64,000 nucleotides of DNA, taken from NCBI RefSeq assembly GCF_037042905.1, contig NC_087251.1, forward strand, positions 43,030,001 through 43,094,000, read 5' to 3'. Source of the DNA: Lytechinus pictus. Its lineage: Eukaryota. Below the pieces are notes generated by a model. It was not told the DNA's origin. It was given only the letters and a program-made list of their open reading frames with translations, and searched no databases. A program made the position numbers and the translations under genes. Below, in pieces: positions 24,804 through 62,600 of this stretch; position 1 is the stretch's first letter; every line of letters starts with the position of its first letter.

Positions 24804-25409
24804 TAATATCTCAAGGACGTTGTTTACGACCTTCACTCTAAGTTACAAGTATTGTTTAAACTTTTAAAACAATTTGTTTAAATTTTAAGCAAGTTGTTTA
24901 AAATAAGATGGACAACTTGTTAAAAAGTTTGATCAAGTTATCTTGAGTAAAAAAAAAACACGTTAAAAAGTTTGAAGCGCGAGCAGATTCTTCTGTATAC
25001 CGACCTGAAAACGGGCATTTCACGTGCCATTTGGATTTATTAAGAAGATATGTATAAGTTTATCACTAAACAAATAATGCGAGCGCGAAGTTCGAGCTGA
25101 TTTTTTTTTCATATCAAGATCTGAAAACGGCCCACATCTCATTTAAAATATTGCAAAAACAAAGCGCGAGTTGAAAGACTTTGATATATATTGACTTGAA
25201 AAAAAAATTATTGTAGACATGGATACGATATGTCCTATCTCATCGAACAAACATATGCAGACGTGGAGCATAATACTGTACTGACCTTAATACGAAATTT
25301 TTCTAGCACTCTTTGTAATCGTCAATGTGATATCTATTCCAATAAAGGAATATACCTACCTCAAAAGCAGTTTGGACAATTTTACAAATTCCTACAAATA
25401 CTATATTTT

Positions 25410-36506: not shown

Positions 36507-36818
36507 TTAAACACAGTAACTTCCCCTCGCTTTAAGGGATTACATTTCTGAACACCTGAATGTGATGAAGTTTCCTCTCCACAGGAAATCTATTCAAAAT
36601 TCTTTCCAAAGAAAGCATTTCCTCCTGGACACAGAAAATGAATGTTGACAAAGACCTCAAGAACCTGCCTTATTAGGATTCAAACAAGTGCATTGTGGTT
36701 TAATAATAGAGTTACAGACTAAGCCAGAAAATGTACCAGATGTATGAAGCTTCCCTTTTGGTGACAATATCGGCACGCATGAGGAGCAAAAAAATGGTCT
36801 TTATTGACTCTGACTCTA

Positions 36819-37763
36819 CAGTGCGTATCAAAAAAAAGTTTACACTTAGAAAAAGTCCTTTAACATCATACATTTGTAATATCTTGAAGATTTTTTGACA
36901 TTTTAACATTGGTACAGATCCATTAAATCAGATGACGATATAACTGTCAAAAAATATTTCCGCTTGAGTGAGCACCACTTACTTTTGAAAATGTAGTGAA
37001 AAATGATTTGCGCAGAACTTTGAAATAGTTATGTGGAATTTAGCTAGTGAAATTGATTTGTAGATATCTTTTACCTTTTTAAATTTGTTTTCTTGCCCAA
37101 AACACTTCGAAGAGTGCCATTGCGCCCCACCCCACTCCCCCACACACCGAGGCCATCATGATGATATTTGCTTTACACTGAGCTGTGATTTTCATGAAAT
37201 GGCTTAGGCTTGATTTTAATTTTGTTAATCATTGTTAAGCTTGGGAAAAGTGTGGAGAAACAAGTATTAAATGAAAAATGAAATGTAAACCCACATTAAA
37301 TGATAAAAACTTAGTAAAAAGATGTTGGAGATGTATGATACAAGCTTTTGTTTGGATTTAGTTATGTCCTCAGATCCAGCTGGCACAAAAAGCGTAAAGG
37401 TTGTGCTTACTAAGTGTTAAAATTTTAATTTTGGTGGCAAAATTGTTACAAAATGCTTACATGTTGTATCCATTTGACTTCAATTGACTCAAAGTGCAAG
37501 AGAAATGTTTCGCAGGGTAAGTTTGATTTCGCCTTTTTCCTTGACACAGCGTGAAAACGAGCATTTCTGCGCAAACAGATTTCTGCGAGCTTTACACAAA
37601 TGGACAGTGCTCATTCAAGTGTAACATTCTGTCAAAATTTTTACTCTCATTAGATAGATGAGACCCAAACCCAAGAATATATGTGAAAAAAATACCCACA
37701 TGTTGTATATTTTTCAATTGCCAGGGCTTTTTCAAAGTGTAAACTTTTTTTTGATATGCACTG
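36819..37763. mobile_element. Non-autonomous Tc1/mariner-like element
   Basis: ta|CAGTGCGTATCAAAAAAAAGTTTACACTT...AAGTGTAAACTTTTTTTTGATATGCACTG|ta. Confidence 0.88.
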
Positions 37764-39198
37764 TATAATACCAAGACTTCACATTGCCTTTCATTTCATC
37801 AGAGTCAATTAATCTAGGAAAATATCCACAAATGACCACCTCGAACAAGATCCATTGAGAATTCCTCTAATGCCACTACGAAGAGGCCATCACTCTCACA
37901 AGATATCAGCGTTTGTGAGTCCAAGAAGTGTGTGAGTTTCATGAGGTTTTGAAGAGCTCCGGATATCAAGTTGAAAGGAGCACCATTCCTTGTGGTCAGA
38001 CAGTACTTGAAGATTATCGCAACATTACCAGATTCCAAACACCAAATATAAAGATGTCACATGCAACTTTAACAAACTTCTGGAAGTCAGTATCCCTCTC
38101 TTCAAACATACGTTGCCTGTTCCTCATTCTTCTCTTTGTGCAGAACAAAATGGTTACCTGCGTCAATTTGGAGTGCAATCCAGTTTTGATCGATCTTGAC
38201 AAATGTCACCGAGCTTAAAAGCCATATTGGCTAAACCGCTCCATCAATATTTCAAATATCAATATGGGTCAACTTGAAACACTATACTGGCAAGGCTCTA
38301 GAAATCAAAATTTGACATTGCACTTCTAAAACAAGATTCCAGACTTACATATATTACTTTGATTGAAGGAGATTTTTTTTTTAACACACCGTAGAAAAAC
38401 CATTCAGGTGCATAATCCTCATAAAAATGGGTGAAAAATTCATATCCGAAGTTAAAGATTTGGGCAAACAAACCTATATTGAGAATCTACCTTATCATCA
38501 CATATCTTAACATTCGTGCAGTCCACATTATCTCTTCTCATTCTGTGATTTCATGATGGATACACACTCGGCACACCTTATGTTTCTGGTGGTGCCATCG
38601 GCTCTAGCAAAACATGAGGTTCAAGAAGGTAAATGGTGAAATGACCGCGATAAAGTTTAAAAATATTAATTCAAATTAGTCTGACCCCAAAAATAACACA
38701 TAGGGAAAAAGAGAATAAATATTTTGCACCATAATTCACATTGCTCTATCATTGCTCTGCAATTAAAAAAAAAAACTAGATCAAAGTCTGTATATAGAAA
38801 TATATATATATAAATTTCTTATAAAAAATTGTTTATCCTTTTATCAAATTATTAAATCAGTCATGGCAAATATCATGTTGCAACAATGTGAAACAAAGAT
38901 AAAGTCCGAACAGCTAGAACAGATAGTACTTGGAGGTATATAAAGAAAGACTGTAATCAATGGATTGACACATACCCAACAAAAGGATACAGGGATGGGA
39001 AGATATAAATGTAAAGGTCAAAAGAAGGGATTACAGTCATTAATTAAAGAGAGAAAATCCTGATATGGGGAAAATTGCCACCCAATATTTTCACAAATGT
39101 TTTTGCCATCAGTACATAATTACTGGAAAACCGATTGCATTGTCTTGCATACTCTAGGCTACACAAAATATCATTGAAATCATTATTAAAGCACTTAC

Positions 39199-39659: not shown

Positions 39660-40321
39660 CCCGGGGGGGCCACTTACATTGACGAGTGGATACCATGCGC
39701 GACCAAAAAAACACGTAAAAAGGATGTCATTTTCAAGATAGGGCACGTTACGTACGTAACGTGATAAGGGTGTCAAAAACACAAAAATATTGAAAAAAGG
39801 GTATCTATTTCGCTCGGAAAAATATACGTGTTTAGGGTCAAATATGCGGGGATGATAAAACAAAATCAAAATGTTTTATAAAGGATGTCCTTTTTGCCCC
39901 AACACTACGTGTTTAGAGTCCGATTTGCGCGAGGTGTGGAAGGTGGGGCTGTACTAAACCAAAATAATGGTGTCTAAAGGTAAAACCGACGGACGCGTGA
40001 CATAATCAATAAAATATCTCTGTACTTGTTTAGGGGTCATTTCAGGGAATACTTGCTAAGGGTATCGTTTTTTTCCAATACTTGTTAAGGGGTGCATTTT
40101 CAGAATATGGAAAATACATCGCTGTACTTGTTTAGGGGCTCAGTTCTGGGAATACTTGCCAATAGTATTTGTTTCCAATACTTGTTAAGGGTAGGGTTTC
40201 ACACGCCAATACTTGTTAAGGGGTGCATTTTCAGAATGTGGAAAATACGTGTTTAGGGTGCTTTTCAAGACCCCGTGGTCGCGCATGGTATCCACTTGTC
40301 GATGGAAGTGGCCCCCCCGGG
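39660..40321. mobile_element. Non-autonomous DNA transposon with 8-bp TSD and CCCGGG termini
   Basis: TSD AGATCACC at 39652-39659 and 40322-40329; ~45-bp TIR; internal aatacttgttaaggg subrepeats; eroded copy at ~10430-10890. Confidence 0.88.
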
Positions 40322-41194
40322 AGATCACCATATTGATTGGATCACCCACAGAAGATGCACTCTATGGCGTATGAATCAATGAGACTGCAAATTAAATATC
40401 ATATGCACATTAACAATTAGGCAGGACTTTCAGTCAGATTAATATATTCATGTAACGGTTCCAAGAATTATTTTGCTAGATTCATAAACACCATGACTAT
40501 ATACTCTGGATATAATGAAACAAAAAGAAAAATACATCACTAGCAGTCTAGCACGATATATTACTGGGACTAATGAAACTTTGATATAAATTAGATGGAT
40601 TCATGATCTTTGTCACACCCATACGCCAGATGTAAGTTTGAAGTTGAATCTTCACACGGTTATTTATTTTTTCATGAAGGATATTTTGGGGTAAAAAATG
40701 ACCTCTGTGACCTTTGACCTTTTGCATCTTGCACATCTTTGGACCAATTTAGTTTACTTTTTCAGGTTACTTCTTTTAATCTGATATTTTGTCAAAAAGA
40801 TATTCTTTCCAAAACATGTGTTATCCTGCAAAGAAATTTTCCTGGGTGTTTGTTGTTGTTGTTTTAATTCGTGTTAATGACATCATTGAATCCTTTGAAA
40901 TAACAAATTTCATCATCTATGCAGATGATACAAAAATATTTTGTAAAATTAAAATAAAAAATAGACTGAATTAGCTTAGAACAAACTTTGCTATTCCTGC
41001 ATTTGAAATAATCTTAATCTCTAATTTAGAATATGAAATTTTTTTTTTTCATAAACTCTTTTTGTATCATAATGATTTATGAAACTGGACAGAACACATT
41101 AATGATATTCATGGAAAATAAGTGTATATGATGCTATTGTGCTGCATTGCGCACAAATTCAAATGGGGGGGGGGGGGTGGGGGTCTTTGTGTTA

Positions 41195-41783
41195 AAGGGG
41201 AACGCAAGTCATAAACCATGGTGAAGCCCTCTGTGGAACTTTCAAGCAGCCTGCAGAAAAAAACTAATGTCAAAGAAACTCTTGTATCTCTTTTTTTTTT
41301 ATTTAACTTTTCTAATCTTAAATTTTGACAGTATGAAGAAGCTAATTTTTTTCATTTGAGGATCAAATTTACTATTTTGGCCATTTACAGAGAAGCTTCC
41401 CTGGCAACTTATTGTTGCTTTGTGGGTGGCTGGTCACATGAAAAAGCAATTGCAAATAGAATCTGAAAAATAATAATAATAATTGACGCAGAGCCATCAA
41501 GATGCAAAGTAAATTTTCACTTTGAACATATAAGTGTAATACTAGTACATGACGTTTATTTGGATTAACAATCAAGAGACCAGTTAAGAGTCTAGGACGA
41601 AGGAATGAAGAGAACTTCGGCAACTCAAAATAAATGACGACCCTGGGATGGGTTGAATTTGCGCTTCCCAATTTTTGATTTCATTAATTCAGTATAGTAT
41701 TATTACTGTGTGCTTAAAGTAAACAAGCCTTTTGCAAATTGCTTACGATCCAATTTCCCCATGGTCCGGGACTTACGTTCCCC
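41195..41783. mobile_element. TTAA-flanked MITE (aggggaacgcaagtc...gacttacgttcccct)
   Basis: 15-bp imperfect TIR and TTAA TSD. Confidence 0.7.
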
Positions 41784-42032
41784 TTTAAACAATTATTCTA
41801 TGACAAGTAGATCCAGGGTAAAAAAACAGAGATAATATTCATTCGGGGAAAACTCTGGAAAACCTTTGGGTCCACTTTTGCAGAATAGTAAACACAAATA
41901 CTAACTTCATGTAAACCGAGTTAACTCCACAAAAACCTACAAGTCATAATTAATTATAAACCTCACAATACTTGAAAATCATTTGTAACCTTGTGAACAT
42001 ATCATTTTCTCCTAGTAATCATGCCCTACATA

Positions 42033-45000
42033 TAGTCTAGGAGATGGGGGGCTTTATTCAGAATTTTTGGTGGGGAAGGTTTGACAGGCTTATCCGGGGT
42101 AAAATTGTGTGCTGATTCCAAAAATGTCAGTCTTATTGACCGTACTCACGACATTTTAGCCATTTTGGCCAATTTTATTGACCAAAAATGACCAATTTGA
42201 CCATGCTTTGGAAAATGGTCCCTTAACAGAATGCTTATGTGCCCACATCCAATTAAAAGGGTCTATCCTAAGTAAAAATTCACCCAGATTTGAGATAAAG
42301 TGGTTTCATTTGCCAAATCACAATAGAAGTGGTCATTTTGGCCACGTTTTGACCAAAAATGACAATTTTCCTGAATTTTTTGTCCGAAATGTGTTACACA
42401 TATTAATCAGAATTACGATTGGATGTCTTTAGAAATCCACATTTATTTTTAAAATGTGCGCTAGATCATAACAATCAACCTCATGTAATTTATTCCGTCA
42501 GTTTTGACATATGAGGGTCATTTTGGGTACTTTAGACATAACTGACCATTCGCTCAGTTTTGCATAATAAACTGTGCAAATCGGAAGGAATTTGAGGTCT
42601 TCAGCTTGTTTTATATTCTTCCCTTGTAAAATGGGAATGCACTTAAAGATCTGTCTTGTGTAGAATTCTATGTTGATTCCAAATATATCAGTCTTAATGA
42701 CCTTATCCAAGAGCTTATGTCATTTTGGCCACTTATGGCCCTCAAAATGACCAATGACATCAGTTCAATTTATTTAAAAATATTTTCAATGTTACCAGAA
42801 TCGTAACAAGCCTGTGATGTGACACCAAATATTGATGTGTTAATTCTTTAAATTGAACATCTCAAAAAGTATTTTGATCTCATGTAACTTATTCCATCAG
42901 GTTTGACATAATTGTGAGGGTCATTTTGGGTATTTTAGACATTACTGACCATTCGCTCAGTTTTGCAATATAAACTGTTCAAATAGGCAGGAAATTTAGG
43001 TCTTTAGCATGTTTTTCTTCTTCCCTTATAAAATTAAATGCATTAAAAAGTCCTTCTTGTGTAGAATTTTATGCTGATTCCAAATATATCAGTCTTATGA
43101 CCCTATTCAACAGCGTGTGGTCATTTTGACCACTTCTTGCCCTCAAAATGACCAATGACATCAGTTCAGTTTATCCAAAAATACTTTAAATGTTACCAGA
43201 ATCGTAACAAAGTGTGTGCTGTGGCACCTAACATTGGTGTATTAATCCTTTGAATTGAACATCTCAAAAGTATTTTGACCTCATGTAAGTGACCTAGGGT
43301 CATTTTGGATACTATAGACATATATGTATCTGACCATTCGCGCAGTTTTGCATAATAAACTGTGCAAATAGGTGGGGATTTTAAGGCCTTCAGCGTATCT
43401 TTTCTTCTATGGAAATGCATTTAAAGGTCAATCTTGTGTAGAATGTTATGCTGACTCCAAATATATCAGTCTTAACAAGCCTATTAAATAGCTTATGGTC
43501 ATTTTGGCCACTTTTTGTCCCTCAAAATGACCAATTCCATCAGTTCAATACTGAAATTTATCCCCCAAAAAAATTGAATGTTACTACAATCGTTACAAGG
43601 AAGTGCCGTGACACCTATCACTGGTGTTTATGAATCCTTTAAATTGAGCATCCAAAAAGTATTTTGAACACCTTGGTCATTTTGGCCACATTGACCACTA
43701 CCCAATGTGTATACTAATTAAGCCTATATCGAACATGGCGAGGAGACATTCAGGATTGCGTTAAAATTAGCATCAATTATTGTTAAATGTGAATAGTTTG
43801 AAAGTTACGGGGTGTAAATCAATGCAATGATTCCATATAAGCCAGTGTTATTGGCCTATTACTATTGGACCCTGTGGTCATTTTGATCATTTTTTCCTCA
43901 ATATGACTAGTAACCACACATTCTTTGGTTTGAAAAGGGCTCAAATGTTGCTTAATATCATTATCAGCGTGAGCTACGACAACAATAATCAAAAGTGTTG
44001 AAAAATATGATAAAACCTTCAAATCGAGTACCTATACATAAGGTTGTTTGACCATGCACTTTGGTCATTTTCATGATTTTAGGCTCACTGACCTCTTCGT
44101 AAATATTAATGGAAACTTCAATTATAGCGGGTAGCAAATTCAGGAATTAGATATTTTTACATAATTTAATGCTAGATAGGACATATAACCAAACTTTCTG
44201 AAGTAGATTAATACAATGATTCCAAATATATCAGTCTTAATGACTATTTACAAACTAGTGGTCATTTTGGTCGCTTTTGGTCCCTGCAATTACCAATTAC
44301 AATTGCATGAATAAAAAAAATCAAATTTTGTTGTGTATTTTTGAATCAGTGACAAATCGTTTAATTCAATATGGTATGATCAATGGTACATAATCAAAAT
44401 TTGACAATTTTGGTCATTTTGGCTACTTTGACCATTTATCCAATGTGTGAATTTTGAAATAAACATGATTGAGCAGCAATTGTAGGTCTATGAAAGTGTG
44501 TTCAATCCCTTTTATTGAAAATATTTAAAGGCTCACCTTGAGTAAGAATTGTACCAAATATCTTGCGACTGTTTACCGTGGCCCCTTTGGTCACTGTATG
44601 GTCCTAAAAAGCCAGCAATATTTACCTTCTTTAAAGTCAAATTATACTGAGAATCTTTACAAAGCAATATTGGTCACAGTGGACTTCATTAAGAGTTTTG
44701 ACCATCATTCATTTTGACCATCTTGGAGTTTTTTGTACAACGCTTCAAAAACCTCATATTTACCCTGAATTCTTTTGAAGAAATGCTTGGTAATAAAACA
44801 CATTCTATATGAAATTATTCTCTGTGCCGATTTTTGGCCACTCTAACAATTTAGGGCAAGTTTTCCACTTTCAACTTCACCAATCATGCCAATGTGAGGT
44901 TTGTGAAACATTATACATATGGCAAAGGTGGTAGAATGCATGATAGTTAAATCTATTCATGAAATTCACTTTGACCAATTGCTTTGTAATGACGCACCTT

Positions 45001-48000
45001 TGAATTGAGGATTAGTGCCTTCATCCAGAACATATGGAATGATGTTCTGGCTGTTGAAGGACCAGGCAGTGACCAATTGGGCCACAATAGACCGTAGATA
45101 GGTATTTGGAAAAAAAGTTACTCAATGTGAGCTTGTAATATTTCTAATCGAAAGGGATTGAACGCATTTGCATAATTGCTCCACAGTCATGTTTATTTAC
45201 TGCTAAAGTTATACACTGCAAAAACTCTGCATGGTGTTGATTTATCATTAGCCCGGAATTTATATATGTCCACACCAGATAAGTATTGAAACAACACCAG
45301 TTTTGAATCAAGCCGATGCTGTTTTAATATGCTGTTGTATAAACACCTTTCTGGTGTTAGACCAAAACGTAACTGGTGCTGTTTAACACTTCTCTGGTGT
45401 GGACATATATAAATTCCGGGCTGGTGTTAAATCAACACCGGAGTTTTTGCAGTGTACATTATATAAAATGGTCAAAGTGGCCCAAATGACCAAAATGGTC
45501 ACAACATTTTGATTACGTACTGTTAGTAATATTATATTGAAATCAATAAGTAATTCGTCACTTATTATAATTGATATAAAACATCTTATTAACAACACAG
45601 AGCAACAACAACATTTGAATCTTTTTTGATACATTTAGATGTCATTGGTCATTGTCGGGACCAAAATGACCACTAGCTCATAAATGGTCATTAAGACTGA
45701 TATATATATATGGAATCATTAAATTAATCTACTTCAGAAAGTTTAGGGTTATGTCCTAACACTGAATGATGCTAAAATGTCTCATTCCTGAATTTGCTGT
45801 CCCATATATGTGAAGTTTCTATTTACATTTACTATATGGTCAAGGTGGCTAAAATCATGAAAATGACCACAGTGCATAGTCAAACACCTTATATGCTCGA
45901 TGTAAAGGATTTTATCACATTTATCAACACTCTTCACTGATTATTGGTAGTTCTTGCTGATAATGATACTAACCAACATTTGAGCCCTTTTTTAATCATC
46001 AAAGCATGAATGGTCTCTGGTGAGGATAAAGTGGTCAAAATGACCACAGGGTCCAATAGTTAGGCCAATAACACTGGATTATGTGGAATGATTGTACTGA
46101 TTTTCACCTAAAAGCTTTCAAACTTTCCCCATTTAACAATAATTGAAGCTAATATTAACGCAGTCCTGATTGTCTCCTCACCATGTTCGCTACAGGCTGA
46201 ATTAACATTCACATTGGACAGGGGTCAAGCCCAGGGGTCAAGGTGGCCAAAATGACCAAGGTAGTCAAAATACTTTGGGGATGTTCAATTTCAAGGTTTC
46301 TTACACAAATGTTAGATCCTACAGCACACCCTTGTTACGATTCTGGTAACATCCGAAGTATTTTTTGATAAAATGAACTGATGTCATTGGTCATTTTGAG
46401 GGCAATAAGTGGCCAAAATGACCATAAGCTGTTGAATAGGGTAATTAGGATTGACATATTTGGAATCAGCATAAAATTTTACAAAGGTTAGAACCTTAAA
46501 TGCATTCCCATCTTATAAGAGAAGAATATAATACACGCTGAAGACCTCAAATTCTTGCCTATTTGAACAGTTTATTACGCAAAACTGCGCGAATGGTCAG
46601 TAATGTCTAAAGTACCCAAAATGAACCCATATGTCAAAACTGATGGAATAATTTACATGAGGTCAAAATATTTTTGAGATGTTCAATTTAAAGAATTAAT
46701 ACACCAATATTTGGTGTCACAGCACACCCTTGTAACGATTCTGGTAACATTCAAAGTATTTTTTGATTAATTGAACTTATGTTATTGGTCATTTTGAGGG
46801 CCATAAGTGGCCAAAATGACCATAAGCTGTTGAATAGGGTAATTAGGATTGACATATTTGGAATCAGCATAAAATTTTACACAAGATAGACCTTAAATGC
46901 ATTCCCATCTTATAAAGGAAGAAAATAATACACGCTGAAGACTTCAAATCTTTGCCTATTTGAACAGTTTATTACGCAAAACTGAACGAATGGTCAGTAA
47001 TGTCTAAAGTACCCAAAATGACCCTCAAATGTCAAAACTGATGGAATTAGTTACATGAGATCAAAATACTTTTGAGATGTTCAATTTAAAGAATTAATAC
47101 ACCAATATTTGGTGTCACGGCACACCTTTGTAACGATCCTGGTAATACTGAAACATTTTTAGATAACTTGAACTGTTATTGGTCATTTTGAGGGCCATAA
47201 GTGGCCAAAATGACCATAAGCTGTTGAATAGGGTAATTAGGATTGACATATTTGGAATCAGCATAAAATTTTACACAAGATAGACCTTAAATGCATTCCC
47301 ATCTTATAAAGGAAGAAAATAATACACGCTGAAGACTTCAAATCTTTGCCTATTTGAACAGTTTATTACGCAAAACTGAACGAATGGTCAGTAATGTCTA
47401 AAGTACCCAAAATGACCCTCAAATGTCATTTTGAGGGCCATAAGTGGCCAAAATGACCATAAGCTGTTGAATAGGGTAATTAGGATTGACATATTTGGAA
47501 TCAGCATAAAATTTTACACAAGATAGACCTTAAATGCATTCTCATTTTATAAGGGAAGAATATAAAACAAGCTGAAGACCTCAAATTCCTTCCGATTTGC
47601 AGTTTATTATGCAAAACTGAGCGAATGGTCAGTTATGTCTAAAGTACCCAAAATGACCCTCATAGGTCAAAACTGACGGAATAAATTACATGAGGTTGAT
47701 TGTTATGATCTAGCGCACATTTTGAAAATAAATGTGGATTTCTAAAGACATCCAATCGTTACGGTAGTTCTGATCAATATTTGTAACACATTTCGGACAA
47801 AAAATTCATGAAAATTGTCAATTTTGGTCAAAACATGGCCAAAATGACCACTTCTATTGTGATTTGGCAAATGAAACCACTTTATCTGGAATCTGGGTGA
47901 ATTTTTACTTAGGATAGACCCTTTTAATTGGATGTGGGCACATAAGCATTCTGTTAAGGGACCATTTTCCAAAGCGTGGTCAAATTGGTCATTTTTGGTC

Positions 48001-48145
48001 AATAATTGGCCAAAATGGCTAAAATGTTGTGAGTACGGTCAATAAGACTGACATTTTTGGAATCAGCACACAATTTTACCCCAGATAAGCCTGTCAAACC
48101 TTCCCCACCAAAAATTCTGAATAAAGCCCCCCATCTCCTAGACTA
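42033..48145. mobile_element. 6.1-kb foldback non-autonomous DNA transposon, Academ-like
   Basis: Ends TAGTCTAGGAGATGGGGG...CCCCCATCTCCTAGACTA; TSD ATA at 42030-42032 and 48146-48148; mirror symmetry runs almost to the centre; ~395-bp internal tandem units. Confidence 0.9.
45214..45454. mobile_element. CACTG..CAGTG MITE with TA flanks, nested in the foldback element
   Basis: ta|CACTGCAAAAACTC...GAGTTTTTGCAGTG|ta; ACACC subrepeats. Confidence 0.85.
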
Positions 48146-48556
48146 ATAGTATACATCCATTAATGAAACAACAGATACTTCAGATAATTTGGAAAGTCAG
48201 CAAATAATAAGGGACAGTGATTTTCTGTTTACCGGTAAATCAAAACGAAAAATCTGTTTTGGTTCTATACTTTTAAGGAGAAGACTCATTGCAAAATGGA
48301 ATTCATGGTTTTTATGTGTACGTTTTCTCTCAAAAACAGAATTTCATTCTCAATCAAGTTTGAAACAGAATAAAAGGTTTCAAGAAAGAGAAAAGGATTT
48401 TTTTTTAAATTTAAACTGAAAATCACTGTTCAGAGATAATAGCTTGGACCTGCTTCTTTGAGATGCACAAAAGTCATCATAAAATACCTAAAAATGGGTT
48501 CATGACAGTGTTGGAAAATTCACAAAATTGAACACTTTGGGGTGCTAATATTGTCT

Positions 48557-49545
48557 AACAAGTGGAATGCCTCTGGAGTCTCACCTGCATTACGCGATTC
48601 AATATAGCAGCAGTACTGACTTTGAAAACTACTATAAAATAATTATTCACAAAAAACACCATTCATATAATGATACAATACTACGTTCATTGACATTTGA
48701 CCTTGATCATGTGACCTAAAACTTGTCAGTGAAAATTGATTACCCAAATATCCACATTTTATACACTATACCCATAAACTTTTAAAGTTATGACAGCAAT
48801 CTAATAATTACCTCTAAAATGGCCAAAGTTCAATGACCTTAAATGACCTTTGACTTTGGTCATGTGAACTGAAACTCGGACAAAATGTTCAAAGATACTT
48901 GATTATGTCCAAGTTTCATGAATCAGATCCATAAACTTTCAAAGTTATGATGGTAATTCAACAGATACCCCCACATGGCCAAAGTTCATTGACCTTTGAT
49001 CTGGGTCATGTGACCTGAATCTCGCAAAGGATGTTCAGTGATACTTGATTACTTTTATGTCCAAGTTTCATGAATCAGATCCATAAACTTTCAAAGTTAT
49101 GATGGTAATTCAACAGATACCCCCAACTTGCCAAAGTTCATTGACCCTAAATGACCTTTGACCTTGGTCATCTGACTTGAAGTTCAGGCGGGATGTTCAG
49201 TAATACTTGATTAACCTTATTTTCAACAAGTTTCATGAACTAGGTCCATATATTTTTTAAGTTATGATGACATTTCAAAAACGTTACCTTAGGTTAAGAT
49301 TTTGATGTTGATTCCCCCAACATGGTCTAAGTTCATTGACCCTAAATGACCTTTGACCTTGGTCATGTGACTTGAAACTCAGGCAGGATGTTCAGTAATA
49401 CTTGATTAACCTTATTTCAAGTTTCATGAACTAGGTCCATATACTTTCTAAGTTATGCTGTCATTAAAAAAATTTAACCTTTGGTTAAATTTTGGTGTTG
49501 ACCCCGCCGCCGCCGTCGGAAAAGCGGCACCTATGAGACAAAAAT
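48557..49545 (-). mobile_element. HINE-like element, near full length
   Basis: acaagtggaatgcctctggagtctcacctgc...tandem units...gccgccgtcggaaaagcggc. Confidence 0.75.
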
Positions 49546-50204
49546 TAAGGCAAAGATAATGAAAAGGTCAAAAGGAAGTCTGCAGATTAGCAAGAAGTAC
49601 GATCATTCGTATTGATCATTTTATGCCATTTTGGCGCAAGCCTCCTTTTTAACCCCACACAAAAAAACATTCCATGTTCGCTCAAGCATGAACGAAACTA
49701 AATTTATCGAATGGCATTTGAAAGACTTCAGAGCACCTATTAACACCAAAATATAGTCATCAAAATTTGAAAAAAAAACTTAATAGACTTTTCAAATCTG
49801 TCCCGTTTTTTTATACGCACTGTAAAATTATATTTGGCTCGACTACAAGTCATAAGCCTACATGGGGTGAGTTCCTTTCAAACACTTTGTTGCTGAGTTG
49901 TCCCTACACTCTATACAAAGTTTCTCTAGTCCAAATATGATTAAAGCAGAGTGGTTCCAACTGAATGCACATCTCTTCATCTCCCCTGTAGACAGGCTTC
50001 ACGAATATCCCGCATGAATGAAATTCCATCGCGTCCAGTAGCCTCTGCATAGCTCGACCTTCCACAAGTCTAGCAACTGCCCCACTCAAAGCATCATTTC
50101 AGACCAGGATATGGAAAGCGTGTTTCTACATCTTCTAAGTCAGAATTTGACTAAGTCAAACAGATTTGTGTCGTTCCAAGAGGTTTGACTTCGGCACTTT
50201 CCCC

Positions 50205-50530
50205 TATACTTTCATGTTTCACAGGAACTGTGCAATGGTATGGATTTTACCTTGTGAGTGACCATCAGGGTCAATCGTCACCAGGATGGGTTTTCACCTG
50301 TACTGTCATGTTGTACAAGAACTGCAATGGAATGGATATGACCTTGTAAGCGACCTTGAGAGTGACCTTCTGAGCGACCTTGAGAGTCAATGGTCACCAG
50401 GATGGGTTTTCACCCGTACTTTCATGTTGCACGGGAACTATTGCAAAGGTATGGAAGCAACTTCGTGAATAACCTTGTAAGCAACCTTGAGAGCGACCTC
50501 CTGAGTGACCTTGAGGGTCAATGGTCATCA
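50205..50530 (-). repeat. Three ~90-130-bp tandem units with 12-nt subrepeats in the proximal CRNKL1 3'UTR
   Basis: Recurring gtcaat(c/g)gtcaccaggatgggttttcacc and gaccttgagagt blocks. Confidence 0.8.
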
Positions 50531-50541
50531 ACTTGGGTTCC

Positions 50542-50673
50542 TCATGAGTTGTCATTGGTTTCAGCCATCTTCTGTTTCCACATCTTAGCCATAGCAAGCA
50601 GCTTGAGGTTGGACTGGTTCGTTTCGTCTGAGGGGAAGATGTAGTCGTAGTACTCCTCCCATCCTGCATCCGA
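50542..50673 (-). CDS. CRNKL1: CRNKL1 last coding exon ([14 protein letters not shown]...NDNS*)
   Basis: Conserved C-terminal motif; TGA at 50544-50542. Confidence 0.96.
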   Translation of the reverse strand, partial: SDAGWEEYYDYIFPSDETNQSNLKLLAMAKMWKQKMAETNDNS

Positions 50674-53600
50674 CTGTAAGAGAAGAGAATACATAAATCA
50701 GTTGATAAGTCAACTTCAATCATTTTTTTTTTAAAGTAAAAGTCCATCCAAAATATGTGCTCAGTTTACAGAATAGGGTAAAATTATGCAAAACCATGAA
50801 AATTTCAGCCAAATATGATGTAAAGATGTAAATGGGAATGAAAATTTTGACAACTTCAAATGTTTGATCAAATTGTAAACATGTGTAATATATAGGGTGC
50901 GCATAATATTGGCCGTGTACAGATCTGAGTTCATTTATTGATTTATATTCTTTTTACAATGAATTATTATCATCATCATTATTCTTTTTTAAAAACTAAT
51001 GTTGAATCCATAGAAGGAAATATGTTCAAAGGAGTTCAAAGGGAATTCAACCTTGGTCATAAAATGTAATGTGGGATAGGAGGGAAAAAAAAGTAAAGAG
51101 AATGGTGAAAGTTTGAAATAAATCGGACAAGCAATAACAAAGTTATGGCTGCTTTAAAATTGAGATCCCTTAGACTATGAATATTTCAAATTGGCAACTG
51201 TGTAAGTAAATCATGACAAGGGGCAAGGACAACTTTTCCATAGGCCATGTAATTAATTATCATGGACTTGTGGTTTCCTCCAAAGTACATATTCACCCGG
51301 GACAGTAATCAAAAATATAACCCAGGTAGCATATTACTGTATGTCCTCATGAAAGAAAATATAATTTGAAGTAACATTTTTGAAAAAATGAGATTTTAGC
51401 AATTATTTGTATAGGAATACATGGAAGAGTAGTCCTTGCCTTACATCACTATGACATCACAAATGCAGCCAATTTGAAGTCTCCATTGATATAGTGATTA
51501 CCATTTTTTAAAACTTTTAAAAATTATCATTTATCCGATATTGTTCAAACTCTCACTTATCAACTTGTCTAAATTTGTTTCCCTCAAAAAACAACTTTTT
51601 ATTTGGGATAGATTCCCCTTTGAAACAAAACCCAATTAAGCCCATACCATATATTATTGTTAACGCCAGAATTTCATGGGGAATTTTCCTGAATCGATCA
51701 AATGGCCAAATAGTTTTTACTACCCGTAATCAATAGCAAATGAGCCTTAGGCAGTTCATTGATACAGTGAAGAATTTATCATATAATTTCCTCAAATTTC
51801 TTTTAAGTCTCAAAAATCGTTAGATAACGCCCAATGGGCTTCCACCTAAATATAATGTTTTCCTGTAGGTGGGGTCAGTCCCTCAAGGAGTTTTGACATG
51901 ACCTTACAAAGGCACGACTGCAATGGATAGTTTTCTACTTACCCCATCTTCTGTTTGGACCTTTCTCCTCTTCTTGACCTTGTTTGGCATCTGCTCTTGA
52001 ACCTTTGCTACGCTCTCATCATCTCCAAATTCATTCTGGAAAGAAAAAAAATGGTATTGATAAAAAATAATCATTTAAGGTCTGGCCTTGGAAGGGTCTG
52101 GTGGAAGGATAGCACAAAATATACTTTGGGGGTCAAACTAACATTTCACAACATGAATGCTGGAAAATGTTTATGAAACTGAAAATTGGTAAATTGAAAT
52201 TGAATCGCAACACAAGGGGAAAAATACACAATGGCTCAGGGCATTTAGTTCCCAAACTATACAATATGGCCCCCTTATGGAGTAAAAAAGGTATTTTGAA
52301 ATGAGTAACCATTTAAAAATTACAGAATATATCAATATCTTCCCTGCTTTAGTAGGGTAAAAGTAAGGGAAACACAAGGGCTTGCTAAAGAGATACATAC
52401 AGGTAACTTAACCCTAAAAGAGCCGGGTTATTTGGACCCATCTCCGCCCCCTCCCCTCTGAGATCTCGCCTTTGATCACACAAGCGCCGCGAAAATTTGC
52501 ACAGTGGTAGTGTGCGAAAATAATCTACAAGGCTGTATGGTTAATTTTTTTTTGAAAGAATAAGATTTTTCATTTAATGAATTAAATATGCCAATTTATT
52601 CATGAAATAAAACATTTTCTCTAATCAACTATCATACGGCCCCAAAACTGCTAATTTTTATTCACAGACTCTTGTAGGATCCCAATCAAATGTACTTTAA
52701 AAAAAAAATTGGTATCGCAAGTTTTTTCTCATGTATTTTTTTTTTTATAAATTTCTTATGGATTTCTTTTATTATTGTTTTTTCAATGGAAATTGTTGCA
52801 GACTTAATTCTGATCATAAACAAGACAAAATTAATTGAGTTTAATCAGTAAAAGTAGAAATAATGATACATTTATGAATTTTGGCTAAATACACAATTTG
52901 CATTGGATTTGTACGTGAATTCACGTTTTTGAGCAATTTTGGGTCTGACATGCACTCATATAATGTTGCGTAATTTCGTAACCGCGTACCCGGGCATCGC
53001 AAATTTGGTCACACAAGTTGCGTGAGATCTGAAAGTAAAAAGTCAGCGAGCGGCGCGGTAGTAAAAAGTCAGCGAGCGGCGCAGTTGAAAAATTTCTCGC
53101 GGCGGATCTATCGTGAAAAATGTAGAGGGGGAATCCGCCCCCCCGGCCTTTTAGGGTTAAAGTCAAATCCTTTTGGGCAACATCTGTTCAGCCTCGGACA
53201 AATTTGACTTATGAAGAAGATGTAAATTACACATGTTTTGCATAATCTGGAGCCTGTATCACAAAGCTTGGCAATGATTGTAGAGCATTTTTCTATGATC
53301 AATTGCATTGATTATAATGTATAATCAACAGTGAAAATCAAGCGTACAATCAATCACTAGCCTTTGTGTTACGGGACCCTGGCGTAATGGAAACTGCCTC
53401 CACCGAGACAAATATTCTACTTATGCAAGTTTGTTTACCTGTAGCAGCAACTAATACAAGCATTCCATTATCACCAAACATGGTCTAAGTTCATTTAATA
53501 TTAACCATTTGTCAAGATGATCATATCAACAAATAAGACATTATTTACTAAGGATAACTACTTACATGGATATTGCTCAAATTCAACAGAAGGAAATGGC

Positions 53601-56600
53601 AATGATCTGCAATCTTATTCAAAAACACTTGAGACTTTCACAGGAGAAGCAAGGTTGCCAGTCATCGCCATCATACCATTTACCCGATTTCCAAAACCCA
53701 TCTTACCTCAAATTCCTGCCAAGCCTCCAGTAACATCAGCCTCTCCTCTTTCTCCTCTACATGTTTCAATGCCTTGGTTGCTTCTTCATAGATCTGTCTC
53801 GATCCCAACACACAATCACCCGATCCGACCGACAGCTCACACTTGGCAAAGCTTATCCAGACCTGCGATGTATCAAAAACACATATATCAATTACTGATA
53901 AAATGATTTTAAATCAACTTGCCCTGCACAAATAGGGTTTCTACCAGCTGTAAGAACCTTAATCTTCTTCTTGTTCTTCTTCCCCCGCTTGCTTCGGAGC
54001 TCAGCAGAAAGATCCTGCAGGTATAGCAATTGAGACCTTGAGAAGGAAATTCCTCTAAATTTCTTTCCCCTATCCCTATCAATCCTCATATTTTTACATA
54101 AGCTATAGCAATAAGGAATCGGAAAAGCCATTATGGGAACCTGGATGCAGCGAAGCTGCTAAAATACATAAGACCATACTTTTGTTAATCCTAACAGAGT
54201 CAGGTTATTTAGAAAACTTCCACACATCCCCCCTCCCTAGGGCCTTTTACCAAACTAAAATACCAAATCCCTGAATAACTGTGGACGCTTCTCTTTCAAT
54301 TAAGTTGATGTGTGTGTGTGTGTGTGTTTGAGTTACCTTGACATGTTGTGTCCTTTCTAGTAGTCTTCTGTACAGACTCCTTGCGTTATCCCACTCCTCT
54401 TGCTCCACTTCGAAGTCAATGAAAGACTTCCACAAAACCTCTGGCATGTCAAGTCTAGGTTGACAAATGGCAAGTTCGTAGATGGCTCTTGATCTCTCGA
54501 TATCTCCAAGAATAGTCTCCAACTCTGCATACTAAAATTAAATGAATGATATTGCAAGGTGAGATTGATATCAATAGAGTGAACTTTGCTTTGTTCCTTA
54601 TATTCAAAGACAATTACAAACTTTTAATAAATGAATAAAAATAACTAATTACAGTTACAAATGGTGTCGTGGTATTTTTTTTGTCCTACAAACAGCAAAA
54701 TTTTCATGAAGACACCCTAAAATAATAAACCCACATGATCTCACATGTATAAAGATTAAGAAGAGTTACGGCGAACAATCTATAATTAAAAGAATATCAG
54801 ATATGTAATAGTATAATCATCATATCCAAATTTTCTTAAGGTTTTCTTAAAGTCATATCTATGCACATGCATGAATCATATATATTTTATATCCTTTATC
54901 TTTTTTTCATATAAAAATACCTTTTGCCAAATTGTTTTATGTTACTGCCAAACTGTTGAATATTCCCGTTTTTATCATACAGTAGAATAATAATAATAAT
55001 ATGCATTTATATAGCGCAAAAAATATTTCTATATATTCTATTGCGCTGCAAGAGCTTCCCAGATGCTGTACATACTATTGGAATAGATAGGTTTTTAATT
55101 TTAATTTGATATTATGTAAAGTTGTTGAATTCCTAATGTCGAGGGGAAGTTTGTTCCATAGTTGTGGGGCTGATATAAGAAATGACCTTTCTCCTAGCGT
55201 TGCTTTAGTCTTGAGTGGAGGTACTTGCAGTGTGAGTGTATCTTGTGAGCTACGTAGGTGATGGTCATGAGATCGGGATTTTAATTTCAAGAGATCTGAG
55301 ATAAAACTTGGGGCCTGACCGTTAAGACCATTAAGAATACTACAATGGCATACCCACTAGTCCTTTCCCAGACACTCAATTTACTTCCCAGTTAATATTC
55401 CATTCCAAAATTCCACAACACAAGTAATTTCAATAACATACTTTATCTGTATTATTTATTTTGTAATTATCTGTTTTATTGTGTGAACAATTTTTTGTCA
55501 TTTTTACCTTGTAAATACATCGCGATTTGGCCTTAGCCGCGATGATGTCTTGATTTTTATTAATAAACCATCTATCTATCTATCTATCTATCTATCAGTG
55601 AAATGGGGCGTTTAATAAAGCTGTGCCTTTGTCACCAACATCCTAAAGAAAAGCTTAAAATATATTGGAAGCAAAATATGATTCAGTTATAAAATAAATG
55701 TGAGAAATTCTTTGAAAGTGTAATATGTTTCTCATTATCTAATCATTCTCATCCATTTACCACAATATTATGCATAAATACTTGTAAATAACCATACCTG
55801 TGAAATTAAAAGAATAAAATAACATTCTTCTTCATATTTTCAAGTATTTTTTCACTATTTCTATGAAACAAAGCTTCCAACATGCATCCAAGTTGAAGGG
55901 GGGGGGGGTGGAATCAATCATGTCCTTACCTTCATCCATGTAGTACAGTTAGCAGGGTTGAATTCCAAGAACTTCTCATATAGAACCCTACACCGATCAA
56001 ACTCTCTAAGCTGAAGCTCCATCTCTATGTATGACTTGAACAACTTGTCTTTTGGACACTTTCCAATTGCTGTACCCTGAAGGAATCAATCAACAAAAAA
56101 TGTTTTTTTTACATTTTGATGTATACTTCTTGAAGAAGTATATGTCATTACAGAGCTGCCAACCAGCACGTTTTTAGCGTATTTAGTACGTTTTTGCAAC
56201 CAAAATACGACAGTTTTACAAAATCGTAATTTATTGAGAAAAATCATCTCTATATGTTTTTTTTTCATAAAACTTACACAAATATGGTCATTGGATCAAT
56301 GTAATTTCAGGTAACTTGTTTTTTTTTCAATCATTTTGTTAAAACCAGGGTGAGATATACATATGTTTCAATGTTTTTTTTTTAATCTGCAAGAGTAGTC
56401 TGCATTTTAGCTTGCATGCAGCTTGAGCGCCGCGATGAGCGCGCGCGCGCCACGCATTTGATTATGAAATACATTTTTTGGGGAAAAATACAGTTTTTTT
56501 TTTCACAGAATACATTTTTTTTTTATCACAGAATACAATTTTCATTCCCAGAGGTTAACAGGTCTGGTATTAGGATTTGAAAACATCACTTGATATGAAA

Positions 56601-59600
56601 TCTAAACAGTAAAAGACTTGTACAACTCGTAAAAATCTTGTATTGATAGGACACTTACAGAAAATAATTAATTTTTGTAAAAGTACACTTGACCCTTATT
56701 TTTCTCAATGTTTGCTTCACTTACATAACATGAATGACCATGGTAATATGATAGTATTGTAACTTTTCAATGAAATAGAAAAAAGAGGCAAACAATTTCA
56801 GCAAGGTCGGCAGATAATCTTCAAAATATATTTTTTTTAAACATTTTGAATTTTGTAGTAGGAGATAGAAATTCTTTCAGATATGGTGTGATTATTTTCC
56901 GGATTGATAATCATGTGATTTTCTTAAGTCTTTCATATTCACATAGACTTTAAAGCATACTCCAAAAATACACCTCTAAATCATTTCCTGTCATAACTGA
57001 TATGGACTTACATTGACCACCATGATTATTTTCAACTCTCAGAAATTGATATTATGCATCTTTTCTAAAGAACATTCAGTTTGGTTGCCAAAGTATGAAG
57101 TTCAACAATCCCAGTTTATGTTAATGTTTGTGCTGTAAATGTAACTGTTTAATCAATCATTTTGCTTTCTTTTGTTTTTAACCAATGCGCAGAACTAAGG
57201 GGATTGGCCTCGATAGGCCTTTGCCAATCTCCTACATCCACTGCATGTTGGCTTAAATTAACCCTTTCTTTTTGTCATTATAATGATTGTTCTTTTTTAT
57301 TGTTTATATATTGTATGTATTATTACCCTGTTTAAATGGATGTGATTAAAGTGAATTGAATAAAAAGCATGTTTCCTGCGATATACCTGTACATGTTGCT
57401 CGAGAACGATGCTTAATAATACTTACCATGACTCTCCTTGCTTTCTGAAGTTCTTTCTGTCTGACTTCAAACTGAGCCATCAGCACCCACATCTTAGCAA
57501 ATGTAAACTTCTTATGAGGGATCAGGTCCAGGCACGCCTTGTAAACTTCACGCGTCTTTTCCGAATCCTTCAAAAACAAGATAGCAATGAAATGGAGCTG
57601 GTCAAATGTGTCCACCAACAAATGTAGGCAAGACATAAACTAGTCTAGCTAAGATTGTTGCTTGATATATTTCAAATAATATTTATTTAACCCTGAAATC
57701 AGTGTTATCAATACGTGTTCTATGTTCACTTTCATTCATAATAATCATGAATTGGAATATAGAACTTTCCAACACTGAATCAAAAGGGGGGGGGGGGGGG
57801 ACAGGACCAAACCAAGGCATTGTCTCGCCCATCCCGTGCTGTCTTCAGTGGGACGTGTTCATCGTTTTTTTGGGCAGGGGTAATATCAATGTTAATGCCC
57901 TTTATTGACACATTTAATTCTGTGAACAAGTCACAAATTATGGTGATCAGGTTTCTTATGGACATGCAGACAAATGACCCTAAGTGACCTTTGACCTTGG
58001 TCATGTGACCTGAAACTCAGGCAGGATGTTCAGTAATACTTGATTAACCTTATGTCCAAGTTTCATTGACTACATCCTTACACTTTCTAAGTTGTGATGA
58101 CATTTCAATGTTGACGACGCCGCCGTCGCCGGCAGAACAGCGGCGCCTATAGTCTTGCTCTGCTATGCAGGCGAGACAAAAATGACAAGTTACTGGTCAT
58201 CAGGTTTCAGAAGTACATGTACACAGCCGGTTAATATCATAAGCAACAACTTACCCTGACTTCTAATTCTTCGTAGACGGCGTAGTTGATCCATAGATAG
58301 ATATATCTCCTCCATAATCTCTTCTCCTGAGCAGGTGGAATGTTAGCGATAGCTCTCTCATACAGATCTCTCACTGTCTCAATGTCACCACCAGTCTCCA
58401 TCAGACGCAGGTAGTCAAACCATGCATCGTAGTTGTGAGGGTTGGCTTTCACCTCCTACAAAAAAAACAACAAAAAAACAAACAGTGAAGACCCAGAAGG
58501 GGGAGCATACAGCATAGTCCCGAGTGTCGGCTATTACGTTCTACAAAACACAAAATAAAGAACTCTGAGGAATCGAAGCAAGAGTGTTCACATTTGTTTA
58601 CGAGTTCAAAACTCTGCTGCTAGATTAGTCCTCTCTCAGAAGGAAATCCGAGCACATAACTCCAATTCTGCGTTCTCTTCATTGGCTCCCCATACATCAC
58701 TGTATCTCTTTTCAAAGTTCTCCTTCTCACCTTCAAAATTCTCAATGGCTAATCCCCAGAATATCTTACAGATCTCATTTCTTTACGCTCTAGTACCTCC
58801 TCAAGACCGCTCCGTTCATCGTCTACAATGCAGTTAACTCCTGGACCTCGAACCTCTACAAAGTATGGTGACTGCACTTTTTCTTCGATTGCCCCTACCC
58901 TTTGGAATAGGCTACCATCTTACATTCGTAATGCCAAGTCTGTGAATCAGTTCGAAACCCTACTCAAAACCTACCTGTTTAATAGATGATTCACAGTTGT
59001 GGGTCGGTCAATCGGAGGTGCACACCAGTTTTGATTTTTTATTATTAGTAGGCCTATAGTTGCATTATTTTTTGTGTCATTTTCCCCTGCTACATTTTTT
59101 TTCCTTTTAATCCCAAGTACAAACCATAAACAGAACACAGTGCGCTTAGAAACGTCAGTAGTAAGCGCCTTATAAATGTTATGTATTATTATTAGATTGA
59201 AGGACATGTGTTAGTTGGTTGGAAGACAAATAAAATTCATTTGCAAAATTGTCAAAATTGTCAAAATAATCCTAAATCATCTTAATCAATACTTTTTTAT
59301 CATTTCTTCTTAACAGAAGTGCTTAATAACCATATATCCATGTGTCTTTTAACTTCTATTTCTTATTTATTTCAATGTACCAGATCTAGATCTATCATTA
59401 TATGGTGGCATTTAACATTGATTTTATAGACTTTCTCTTAAAAATATTTTTTTGCTGTAACTACTTTCTTTTACCTTTCACATCTAGGGGTTTGAATGAA
59501 GGTGCCTCATGGAAATGACCCAATAAGGCCTTTAACTTATTAAAAAAAAAATCCTAGGGCAATCGAGCCTTTGCTCAAAGAACTCATACTCTGCAACATC

Positions 59601-62600
59601 CTTTAAGGGCCACCTAAAATTGCATTTGTCCATTAGCAGGTACTAGATTTGAAGACAGACACCTTTTTTTTTAATGTATCTTTTCTTGTACTTATCTTCA
59701 CTTTTGTTTTTGCTGTTTTCGAAGCGCCTTAAGCATTTAATCAAAATGGAAAAGACGCTGTATAAATCCTATGTATTATCATTATTTATCATTAAAAGCC
59801 ATGATAATTTGAGAGTTCACATGAACTAGAAAACAGACAAATTGCTTCTTGAAGGTCCCACAAATTGGGGTTGAATGTGTGTACCTTAAAACAGAGTTGC
59901 CAAAAAATGTACTTCCCGAAGAGTATCAACCCGAGGGGAGCATTTCATAGAACAAATAATCATTAATTTTCACTGATAGTTTATGCTCTGAGCCAATCAG
60001 ATGCAAGGACCTCAGTAGCTTGTAACAAAAAGTGACTTACTTCTTCATATTGAAACCTTCTCTTGCTGATAATGACGTCCTCTATACCAGCCCTGTCTCC
60101 GTATCTCTTCTCATGAATGGTGTAGTTCTTAAACAGTTCTTGAGCATGCTCCTTATCCAAGTTGTCCAGTGCATACTTATAGATCACCTTCGCTCTTTCA
60201 TGCTGTGTTCAACAAACAAGCATATAACAAAATCTGTCAAAATTCATTAACTTTAAAGAACAAAAAAGTAAAATATATCAAGTTTTGTTATGTCTTTGAA
60301 ATTTTAACATTGAAATAGCAAATTCAAAACTGAATCACTTGACAATATTATAGGAATTATCATAATACATGTATCTTTATTATGCCACTGAAAATATATA
60401 AATTATACTTCTTAACTATATCTTTATTTTGTTTGTCATAGAGCCAAGAACTGATAAAGATTTCTGCAAGCGTTCAATTTCTAAATGAACCATGTGACCA
60501 AAGTTGACTTACTTCTTTCTGTCTCTCTTCAAACTTTGCAAATGCTATGTAGAGTTTCTCGTCCATGTGATCTTCATAGAACGCTACGGCCCTCTCATAG
60601 ACGCCCCTAGACAGGCTGACGTAGTTGTGGGATTCTTCAAATCCAGCAAATTTGATCCAGTTCTTCACCTCGGGATGCACATAGACAAGTGGTTCTCAGT
60701 CAAGGAAATAAATATGGTATGCAAAATATTTATAATGGAAAATATTAAGTGTGCAGAATGCTGCCTTTGCACATTTAAATGCAAATATTGTTCATTTGAA
60801 GATGAATATAGAGATATTAATGTGCTGGCCCTATTAAATACAGAAGAATTAATAACATTTACATTTGAGCTGCATGGCCCTGCATGCTATAAATTCATAA
60901 CGTAATGTGTGAATTAAGGCCTTGGAAAAAAAAAATCATACTATATGCCAAGGGCACTCACTTTTAGTGTATATAAATTAAATTTCAAATTACTTCACCA
61001 TGGCACTTCCCACTGATTAACAGAATGTTTTCATTCTCGGATATCTTTGAAGTTGCTGAAAGGGATTACTCTTCAAGGTTCAAGGGCAAAGTACAAATAA
61101 AGAAGTGAAAAGAAAGGCTACACCCCCTAACCAAAATGGATAGGCCTAAGTGTAGTTACTTTTCTGTATAGACATCACATTCAATAATTTGCCAATTCAA
61201 GCTTCTCATATTACCAAATTGCATCACACTACATTCAATATTTAATCCCACCCTTTAAAGTTTTCACAATCATCAATTATTAAAGTTGATTCAAAATATC
61301 AATTATATGTTCATTTCTAAATGAAAACAACTTAAAACAAAACAAAAAACAGAATTAAATCAAACAGCAATACCTTAATATGGTATGCTGTGTGAAAATT
61401 AAAGCTCTTGGTATAGAAAAGCAATATGCCTTCACCAACAGGTAATGAACTACAACTACGACAAATTCCAGACTGCGCACAGACAGAAAGAAGTAGGAGG
61501 GAATGTCATCGACGTGCAAGAGTTGGTAACATTTCAAGGGAAAGTGCTGATATGTAAAGGATATATCTTTCGTAGATTGCTCTAGCACGTTCCGTCTCCT
61601 TGTATCTCAGCTCCATCTTGATGTATGAGAACCAGGCTTGTTCTTCGGGTTCCCACTGCATCCATCGTTCAAACACCTGTCTGGCTCCGCCCACATTACC
61701 CACCAGCTCCTCCATGTAGGTGTACTTGTACCAGAACTGATTGACGCGAGGTAGGATCGTGATGGCTCGATCCCAGATGTTACGAGAATGGTTGATCTGT
61801 TTGTGTCTACAAGAATTAAGAACACCCAAAACTATTATTAACACAGAAATGATGAAATATATAAAAATGATAAATGATAATGATAAATCCATAATTTATT
61901 GTTCGAAATAGACATGAAATGAAATACTCCGAAAATTTGCTTTGCCCAATTGATCGTGGGCTCGGCAGCCGCTGTGCAGCGCCAGATCGACGAGGCTCTA
62001 TCCCTTTAATCGTTGAACGCCAAACACCAAATAAGTGCCTGATAAACCATAATTGGTTAAAAATATGATTTCCTCTACAATAAAAATCATGTTTTTAGCC
62101 AAACTTCATAAAATGTATGATTATTTCTACTTTTAGTCATTAAACTTAACTAATTTCATATTGTTTACTATCAGAATAAAGATAATTTCCACTGAAAAAA
62201 AGCACAAAAAAAGTATTCAAAAAAAGAAAATTAAAGTAAAACGTTTTTTTGCCCAAAGTGCATTTGATCACAATTCTTAAGTCTGTAACAAAGAAATAGC
62301 AATAAATGCAGTATTAGGGCTGTAAAAAGATAATTAGAGTATACTGTTAATTTCATGCATAAATCAGCATAAACAATTATTCATTAGATTATGGGGAAAA
62401 TTTTACTACACAGATTTAATCACTTTAATGGCACCTACATGTATAGACTTACTTCATTTCCATCTCTGCATATTTCAACCAGATTGTGACATTTCTGTGC
62501 TCCACATCCAAAGCTCTTTCCCAAATTGATCTTGCTCTGTGGAAAAAGAAAATGTATAAACAAACAAGTGGAAACTTTATATATTGAATTCTATGCGATC

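Follow-up and report, generated by a model that had tools for sequence, protein, structure and literature searches.

We analysed a 64,000-nucleotide window of the Lytechinus pictus genome (NC_087251.1 in assembly GCF_037042905.1; all positions given here count from the first letter of this window), in which an NAA20 exon (15691–15870, plus strand, E=4e-17) lies tail to tail with a CRNKL1-type gene (50542–61895, minus strand, with the Pfam HAT Syf1/CRNKL1 domain in two of three exon frames), two genes that we take to adjoin in the human genome too. The CRNKL1-type gene reads toward a foldback element of 6113 bp (42033–48145) that opens with 5′ TAG and closes with 3′ CTA, the outermost 62 bases of each end being exact reverse complements. 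ATA stands on both sides of it, a 3-bp flank match expected by chance at a given boundary in ~2% of cases, and the complementarity of the two arms breaks off precisely at these flanks and reaches no further outward. The TAG..CTA ends and the 3-bp ATA target-site duplication named in the original prediction for this DNA are therefore found exactly where the palindrome stops. The inferred empty target (42027–42032 joined to 48149–48151) reads TAC-ATA-GTA, an interrupted palindrome centred on the duplicated triplet, a symmetry that could be a target preference or a coincidence. Within the window the element stands alone: a search for a second copy of its end returned two matches, both the element's own ends, and BLAST of the element against the rest of the window gave no match outside it. 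On the basis of its architecture and of its relatives in public sequencing data, we consider it very probable that the element is one copy of a multi-copy, non-autonomous foldback ('two-TIR', where TIR is terminal inverted repeat) family of cut-and-paste DNA transposons (Table 1).

When the left half is aligned globally with the right half in reverse, the mirror symmetry runs inward to 44758 on one side and 44877–44891 on the other, further than the 44600 and 45060 given previously, and the unpaired centre measures 118 bp in place of the ~450-bp spacer formerly assumed. Arm sequence makes up about 98% of the 6113 bp, so the description as a whole-element palindrome stands as to extent; the palindrome is imperfect, however, with an identity that is graded from ~97% in an outer zone of ~600 bp (593/609 aligned pairs) through ~86% in a middle zone (1152/1333) to ~79% in the innermost zone (551/694). 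The change is a sharp step, with its best breakpoint at 42625 (p=4e-16 and 6e-5 for the differences between zones), and the outer arms are further separated by insertions or deletions of 2 bp at ~141 and 6 bp at ~380 from the end. The left outer arm is likely to be an end retained as functional. The right arm (3269 bp) is longer than the left (2726 bp) because it contains a nested MITE (miniature inverted-repeat transposable element) together with a further, incomplete repeat unit of ~243 bp near 47290–47530, two features that the earlier description does not mention. Both arms carry tandem units of ~400 bp, three in the left and three plus the partial one in the right, with decayed ones further in; given that a unit profile detects decayed pieces as far out as 42074/48105 and as far in as 44664/45610, most of each arm is a single old array. 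An exact 255-bp direct repeat lies in the right arm (46780–47034 = 47174–47428), and the copy number of the unit in this arm could be a remaining assembly error. Treating the loop as a one-sided extension of the left-arm array gave no significant result, as 10% of 5000 shuffles scored equally well.

Table 1. Features of the foldback element and related features of the window (window positions)
Feature	Position	Strand	Basis or remark
Left target-site duplication, ATA	42030–42032	+	flank sequence; X4 contig leaving the flank there
Left outer arm	42033–42625	+	~97% complementary to 47550–48145
GGTCATTTT-core word, inward-pointing, every ~150–210 bp	42329–47851	+ left, - right	matrix scan
Three well-preserved ~400-bp units, left arm	42478–43667	+	81–87% mutual identity
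Left inner arm, decayed run of the ~400-bp unit	43668–44758	+	~79–87% complementary to right inner arm
Decayed unit pieces in left inner arm	43781–44035, 44196–44301, 44400–44664	+	profile matches
Unpaired loop, 118 bp	44759–44876	.	alignment; 44758/44877 joint in runs X2, X4 and X11
Right inner arm, mirror of ~43668–44758, MITE-interrupted	44877–46264	-	arm alignment, unit profile
Nested 241-bp MITE, CACTG..CAGTG	45214–45454	.	TA at 45212–45213 and 45455–45456
Right-arm 400-bp-unit block: three full or near-full units and ~243-bp partial duplicate	46265–47694	-	alignment, profile
Right outer arm, CTA end	47550–48145	-	arm alignment
Right target-site duplication, ATA	48146–48148	+	flank sequence
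CRNKL1-type stop codon	50544–50542	-	2397 bp from element
TGACC/GGTCA-rich dispersed family pieces	13668–14893, 12758–13335, 48557–49534, 5533–6045, 21279–21756, 57975–58183		

No coding signal was detected in the element: the longest stop-free frame is 98 amino acids, against a shuffle mean of 97.5, and none of three frames matched Pfam, which agrees with the earlier judgement that it has no credible coding region; Rfam likewise gave 0 matches across 41000–51000. The arms do hold a repeated word with the core GGTCATTTT, of which there are 12 strong sites on the plus strand of the left arm and 14 on the minus strand of the right arm, compared with a single one scoring above 10 bits over the remaining 57.9 kb (the matrix was trained on 22 of the 26 counted sites). 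These words recur roughly every 190 bp, a spacing along 2.5 kb that is close to one nucleosome repeat. The word is a candidate protein-binding site and, by analogy with Galileo (PMC3573991), possibly one for the transposase. The short word GGTCA/TGACC is also dense within the element (11.9 per kb, against 2.8 elsewhere in the window), and its columns are better matched between the arms than others (151/165 versus 1552/1862, p=0.005; rank 5 among the 75 words tested). The window additionally contains at least six pieces of a dispersed family whose internal 153–163-bp tandem repeats are rich in TGACC/GGTCA; this family has the short word in common with the foldback arms, yet shows no BLAST match to them.

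Evidence that the element is mobile comes from public sequencing runs. The search listed 20 runs, 11 of which held part of 41000–46260 and none half or more of it; four of the 11 (X1, X2, X4 and X11) were aligned at 85% likeness, as contigs only. Runs X12–X20 contained hardly any words of this stretch, a result that does not speak for its absence from them. All 30 depth bins were covered in X2, X4 and X11. Relative to a single-copy flank site (depth 58, 47 and 2.5 in X2, X4 and X11, respectively), summed contig depth reached 179x, 40x and 116x at the loop and 1213x, 564x and 30x at the end of the element, values that convey an order of magnitude and no copy number. To that order of magnitude the family comprises tens to hundreds of copies, and ends outnumber centres in X2 and X4. 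The strand-switch joint 44758/44877 was seen in the same three runs, which belong to three studies, and from this common joint it follows that other copies have the same loop and better-matched inner arms. One X4 contig (record 25; 485 bp, depth 34, ~92% alike) fits the flank 41708–42032 and then continues with 142 other letters, which makes it a likely candidate for the empty site of this insertion. Another (record 26) fits only 42032–42265, that is, the first 233 bp at ~87%, flanked by 53 letters of other sequence at one end and ~1030 at the other; given these foreign flanks, it represents a relative at another site with a different interior. Depth, the loop joint in three studies and this relative thus bear out the multi-copy family that had been anticipated. 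Contigs identical at 99–100% to each arm's own letters were present in X1 (records 2, 5, 6 and 8) and X11 (record 12), and these near-identical pieces speak against mis-assembly. Three X11 bins (43288–43639, 44168–44519 and 45576–45927) had single-copy depth only; these could indicate a shorter subfamily, but no joining contig was shown and we make no claim for one.

The same alignments offer a view of how the arms came to differ. We considered the best-supported 40 of 833 variant rows, excluding 8 in the flank and 1 in the loop. At sites where one arm of the reference copy departs from the majority letter of the family, that family letter stands in the opposite arm at 21/31, the departing arm's own letter at 7/31 and another letter at 3/31; with both arms in the reference, the opposite arm has the family letter at 14/20 (binomial p ~5e-7 at a background of 0.18). 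Because the opposite arm mostly has the family letter, the ancestor would have been more symmetric, and the simplest reading is that its arms decayed independently of each other, save for the outer 600 bp, which were retained or matched anew.

The element displays the features of the foldback class, namely long TIRs making up most of its length, tandem repeats lying inside the TIRs and differing in number between the arms, no transposase gene, and dispersed copies with a target-site duplication (the duplication being seen in this copy). The earlier identification of a non-autonomous foldback transposon with a 3-bp duplication is accordingly strengthened by multiple copies, a common centre and a likely empty site. 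This architecture is already known, and the element is a large, clean example of it. Academ elements have TAG..CTA ends and long TIRs. Since such ends go together with a 3-bp duplication in the one copy, we think it probable, at a lower confidence than for the family itself, that the family is mobilized by an AcademX-type enzyme. The duplication length of AcademX is given as 3–4 bp (PMC10045372) or 3 bp (PMC5199201), and ATA/ATA, seen directly in one copy, falls within this range; the difference is that the element has no transposase or nuclease gene. Of the previous 'Academ-like' label, the duplication length thus stands, whereas the TAG motif, present though it is at the termini, would be no more than a tentative sign of Academ. 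The passages searched in PMC5751038, PMC9783078 and PMC10294476 give no Academ end motif, and a search for Academ through 12 of the 33 files supplementing PMC10294476 gave no match; by the rule of Repbase, membership is assigned by a match of the first 11 bases to a classified element (PMC4455052). No description of an Academ element that is a palindrome over its whole length was found in the literature, a search that did not extend to the usual repositories of such families, Repbase and Dfam.

Among comparable systems, Tc4 of Caenorhabditis elegans is a near-complete palindrome with a short loop. It is likewise a fold-back element with a 3-bp duplication, but it is reported only from ecdysozoans and duplicates TNA within CTNAG (PMC11071193), whereas the site here is C-ATA-G, and a Tc4 assignment was rejected on this ground. 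Tetris of Drosophila virilis, with which FB, sea-urchin TU and TFB1 are cited as members of the foldback class, is also non-autonomous, its autonomous partner was also not found, and its TIRs consist of outer flanking, tandem-repeat and inner domains; it differs in having TIRs of up to 1,735 bp and Mutator-like duplications of 8–10 bp (PMC4079207), compared with arms of ~2.7 kb, a unit of ~400 bp and 3 bp here. A Mutator-type foldback was rejected, given that the flanks have only ATA in common. Close parallels are also offered by the two-TIR elements of Galileo (P superfamily, Drosophila mojavensis), which are likewise gene-less and nearly all long TIR, contain internal tandem repeats (~210 bp) in numbers that are unequal between the arms and harbour transposase sites, and have had their TIRs extended by the copying of one end over the other (PMC3573991). 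These are 1.7–2.2 kb long, however, so that the present element is about three times longer, and the TIRs within a Galileo copy are 98–100% alike (PMC3573991), whereas here they are far more diverged inside and the element has TAG ends with a 3-bp duplication.

Several points weigh against a mobile family of this kind, or against its 3-bp duplication. The element is not spanned in full by any record, and the read comparison covered 41000–46260, excluding 46261–48145 and with it the exact 255-bp repeat of the right arm; X1 and X11, having 99–100% identical pieces, are possibly the source of this copy and hence not independent; contigs from the opposite arm can be aligned to either arm and can inflate the mirror-letter count; two exact-pattern scans of metagenome contigs for the element or its partner gave 0 and 0 matches, so the autonomous partner was not found; and the duplication length is taken from one copy with both ends and one contig end. 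The empty-site check that had been proposed is answered on the left, where the X4 contig leaves the flank at 42032, and not on the right, where the match of its 142 letters to the flank is unseen. Given the lack of a spanning record and the 255-bp repeat beyond the read comparison, one could suppose that the locus is a single inverted duplication, or a product of the assembly, with no mobile family behind it, but this is extremely improbable, and copies at other loci already refute it for the most part. The arms differ at 3–21% of sites and by the MITE, unlike a mis-assembled inversion; each arm's own letters recur in short-read contigs at 99–100%; runs from three studies show the loop in many copies; and a flank duplication and a candidate empty allele are present. 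A more serious, though still rather unlikely, alternative is that the same foldback family is served by another transposase, either of Tc1/mariner type with a TA duplication or of an unclassified group that duplicates 3 bp. As TA is self-complementary, the sequence alone permits the parse TA|GTC..GAC|TA; long TIRs with internal repeats are found across unrelated superfamilies and make an unreliable classifier (PMC3573991); Mutator is said to account for most foldbacks (PMC4079207); and our comparison was made without any Academ end sequence. Against this, the candidate empty-site contig ends its match at 42032, as the 3-bp duplication predicts, and not at 42034, as TA would (the contig is ~92% alike and its loose letters are unseen), a TA duplication would not account for the ATA/ATA match, and the 8–10-bp duplications of Mutator type and the TNA duplications of Tc4 type are absent. 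We retain the AcademX-type enzyme as the preferred reading.

A further alternative, which we regard as improbable, assigns the element a role in the neighbouring gene, either through read-through double-stranded RNA and small RNAs or by supplying CRNKL1 with its poly(A) signal from the right arm in this haplotype. The original prediction had correctly placed the element 2.4 kb past the CRNKL1 stop. On the minus strand, AATAAA and ATTAAA are both absent from 48146–50541 (against 3.7 expected; 4% of 500 simulations likewise had none), and the first canonical hexamers after the stop, at 47928 and 47608, lie within the right arm; without the element, the first would be at 41560, inside the TTAA element described below. 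Moreover, three of three 300-bp arm pairs form stable duplexes as RNA (-540, -362 and -229 kcal/mol). The variant hexamers TATAAA, AATATA, CATAAA and GATAAA are nevertheless present in the 2.4 kb between stop and element, an mRNA whose end falls in the right arm would carry one arm only and could not fold back, and the insertion is apparently absent from another individual and so no fixed part of the gene. To reach the opposite arm, a transcript would have to extend ~5.7 kb beyond the stop and cross 8 AATAAA/ATTAAA hexamers in the right arm, and the kilobase-scale double-stranded RNA formerly envisioned is left unsupported; such RNA from CRNKL1 read-through is speculative. No effect of the element on CRNKL1 is shown, and we regard the element as selfish DNA.

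As DNA, the palindrome had been thought able to form huge hairpins or cruciforms. In yeast, lengthening the spacer from 12 to 100 bp lowers inverted-repeat recombination 300-fold, and 75% homology abolishes the instability of inverted repeats in double-stranded DNA though not in long single-stranded regions (PMC10164571). By these spacer and homology data, a cruciform in double-stranded DNA is unlikely for this element because of its 118-bp loop and ~79% identical inner arms. A hairpin in single-stranded DNA or RNA is possible, the centre (44440–45210) folding as single-stranded DNA at z=-14.4 (versus 20 shuffles).

The MITE in the right arm is a later, unrelated insertion: foldback copies without it are seen as a 45215–45493 joint in X2 and X4, and 343–344 contigs have unrelated loose ends at its edge (45456). 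Its CACTG..CAGTG ends resemble those of animal EnSpm/CACTA elements. It is very abundant, with a summed bin depth of some thousands times single-copy in X2 and X4 and hundreds of different flanks, and a short-ended relative may lie at ~23836–24080. Other mobile elements of the window include a TIR element at 36817–37765, whose TACAGTG..CACTGTA ends we take to be Tc1-like, and another at 39660–40321 with the ends CCCGGGGGGGCCAC..GTGGCCCCCCCGGG. An element of ~600 bp (41187–41792) with the ends TTAAAGGGG..CCCCTTTAA fits the Kolobok type, defined by TTAA and RR..YY (PMC9587614); a multi-copy X11 contig matches part of it at 99.5% identity, and similar ends occur at 24194–24807 and 51034–51621. 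Frames at 16794–17666, 8567–9079, 28305–28610, 55075–55356 and 58559–58837, all on the minus strand, resemble by eye 3′ fragments of proteins from retrotransposons lacking long terminal repeats, although Pfam gave no match for the one of them submitted. Finally, a cysteine-rich open reading frame (6826–7530, minus strand) with ~190 amino acids before a likely splice site and weak atlas look-alikes (≤0.86) may be a mobile-element gene's first exon; as an Academ remnant it was rejected, given no Pfam match, atlas matches below 0.9 and no TIR nearby.

How such a family could come about can be envisioned as follows. The family would have arisen once, both arms becoming copies of one end, either because an element with long TIRs lost its gene-bearing middle or because one end was copied onto the other in the course of break repair, a route proposed for Galileo (PMC3573991). 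A transposase encoded elsewhere in the genome would bind the ends, probably aided by the repeated GGTCATTTT word, excise the element and insert it with a 3-bp staggered cut. The outer 600 bp may have stayed near-identical either as a requirement of the enzyme or through renewal by arm-to-arm conversion, while the inner arms would drift apart independently, and the 118-bp loop and the diverged centre would block cruciform extrusion in double-stranded DNA and thus permit stable inheritance. A bolder form of this scenario, which we put forward only tentatively and hold to be unlikely as a whole, is that of an Academ-mobilized giant foldback family in which the 600-bp step marks the end that must match, the GGTCATTTT words form a phased array of transposase sites, and the diverged centre, together with the fixed 118-bp loop in it, is a selected anti-cruciform device.

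If true, the Academ-mobilized reading would add the foldback architecture to a superfamily for which no such description was found, and, should the partner be an Academ transposase, the element would provide a candidate binding word and a minimal end for a little-studied group of transposons. In single-stranded DNA, arms of this kind could fold back and seed rearrangements (PMC10164571). The stepped arm identity over tens to hundreds of copies is material with which selection can be tested against conversion in the matching of TIRs, and the family as a whole is material on how kilobase palindromes stay stable.

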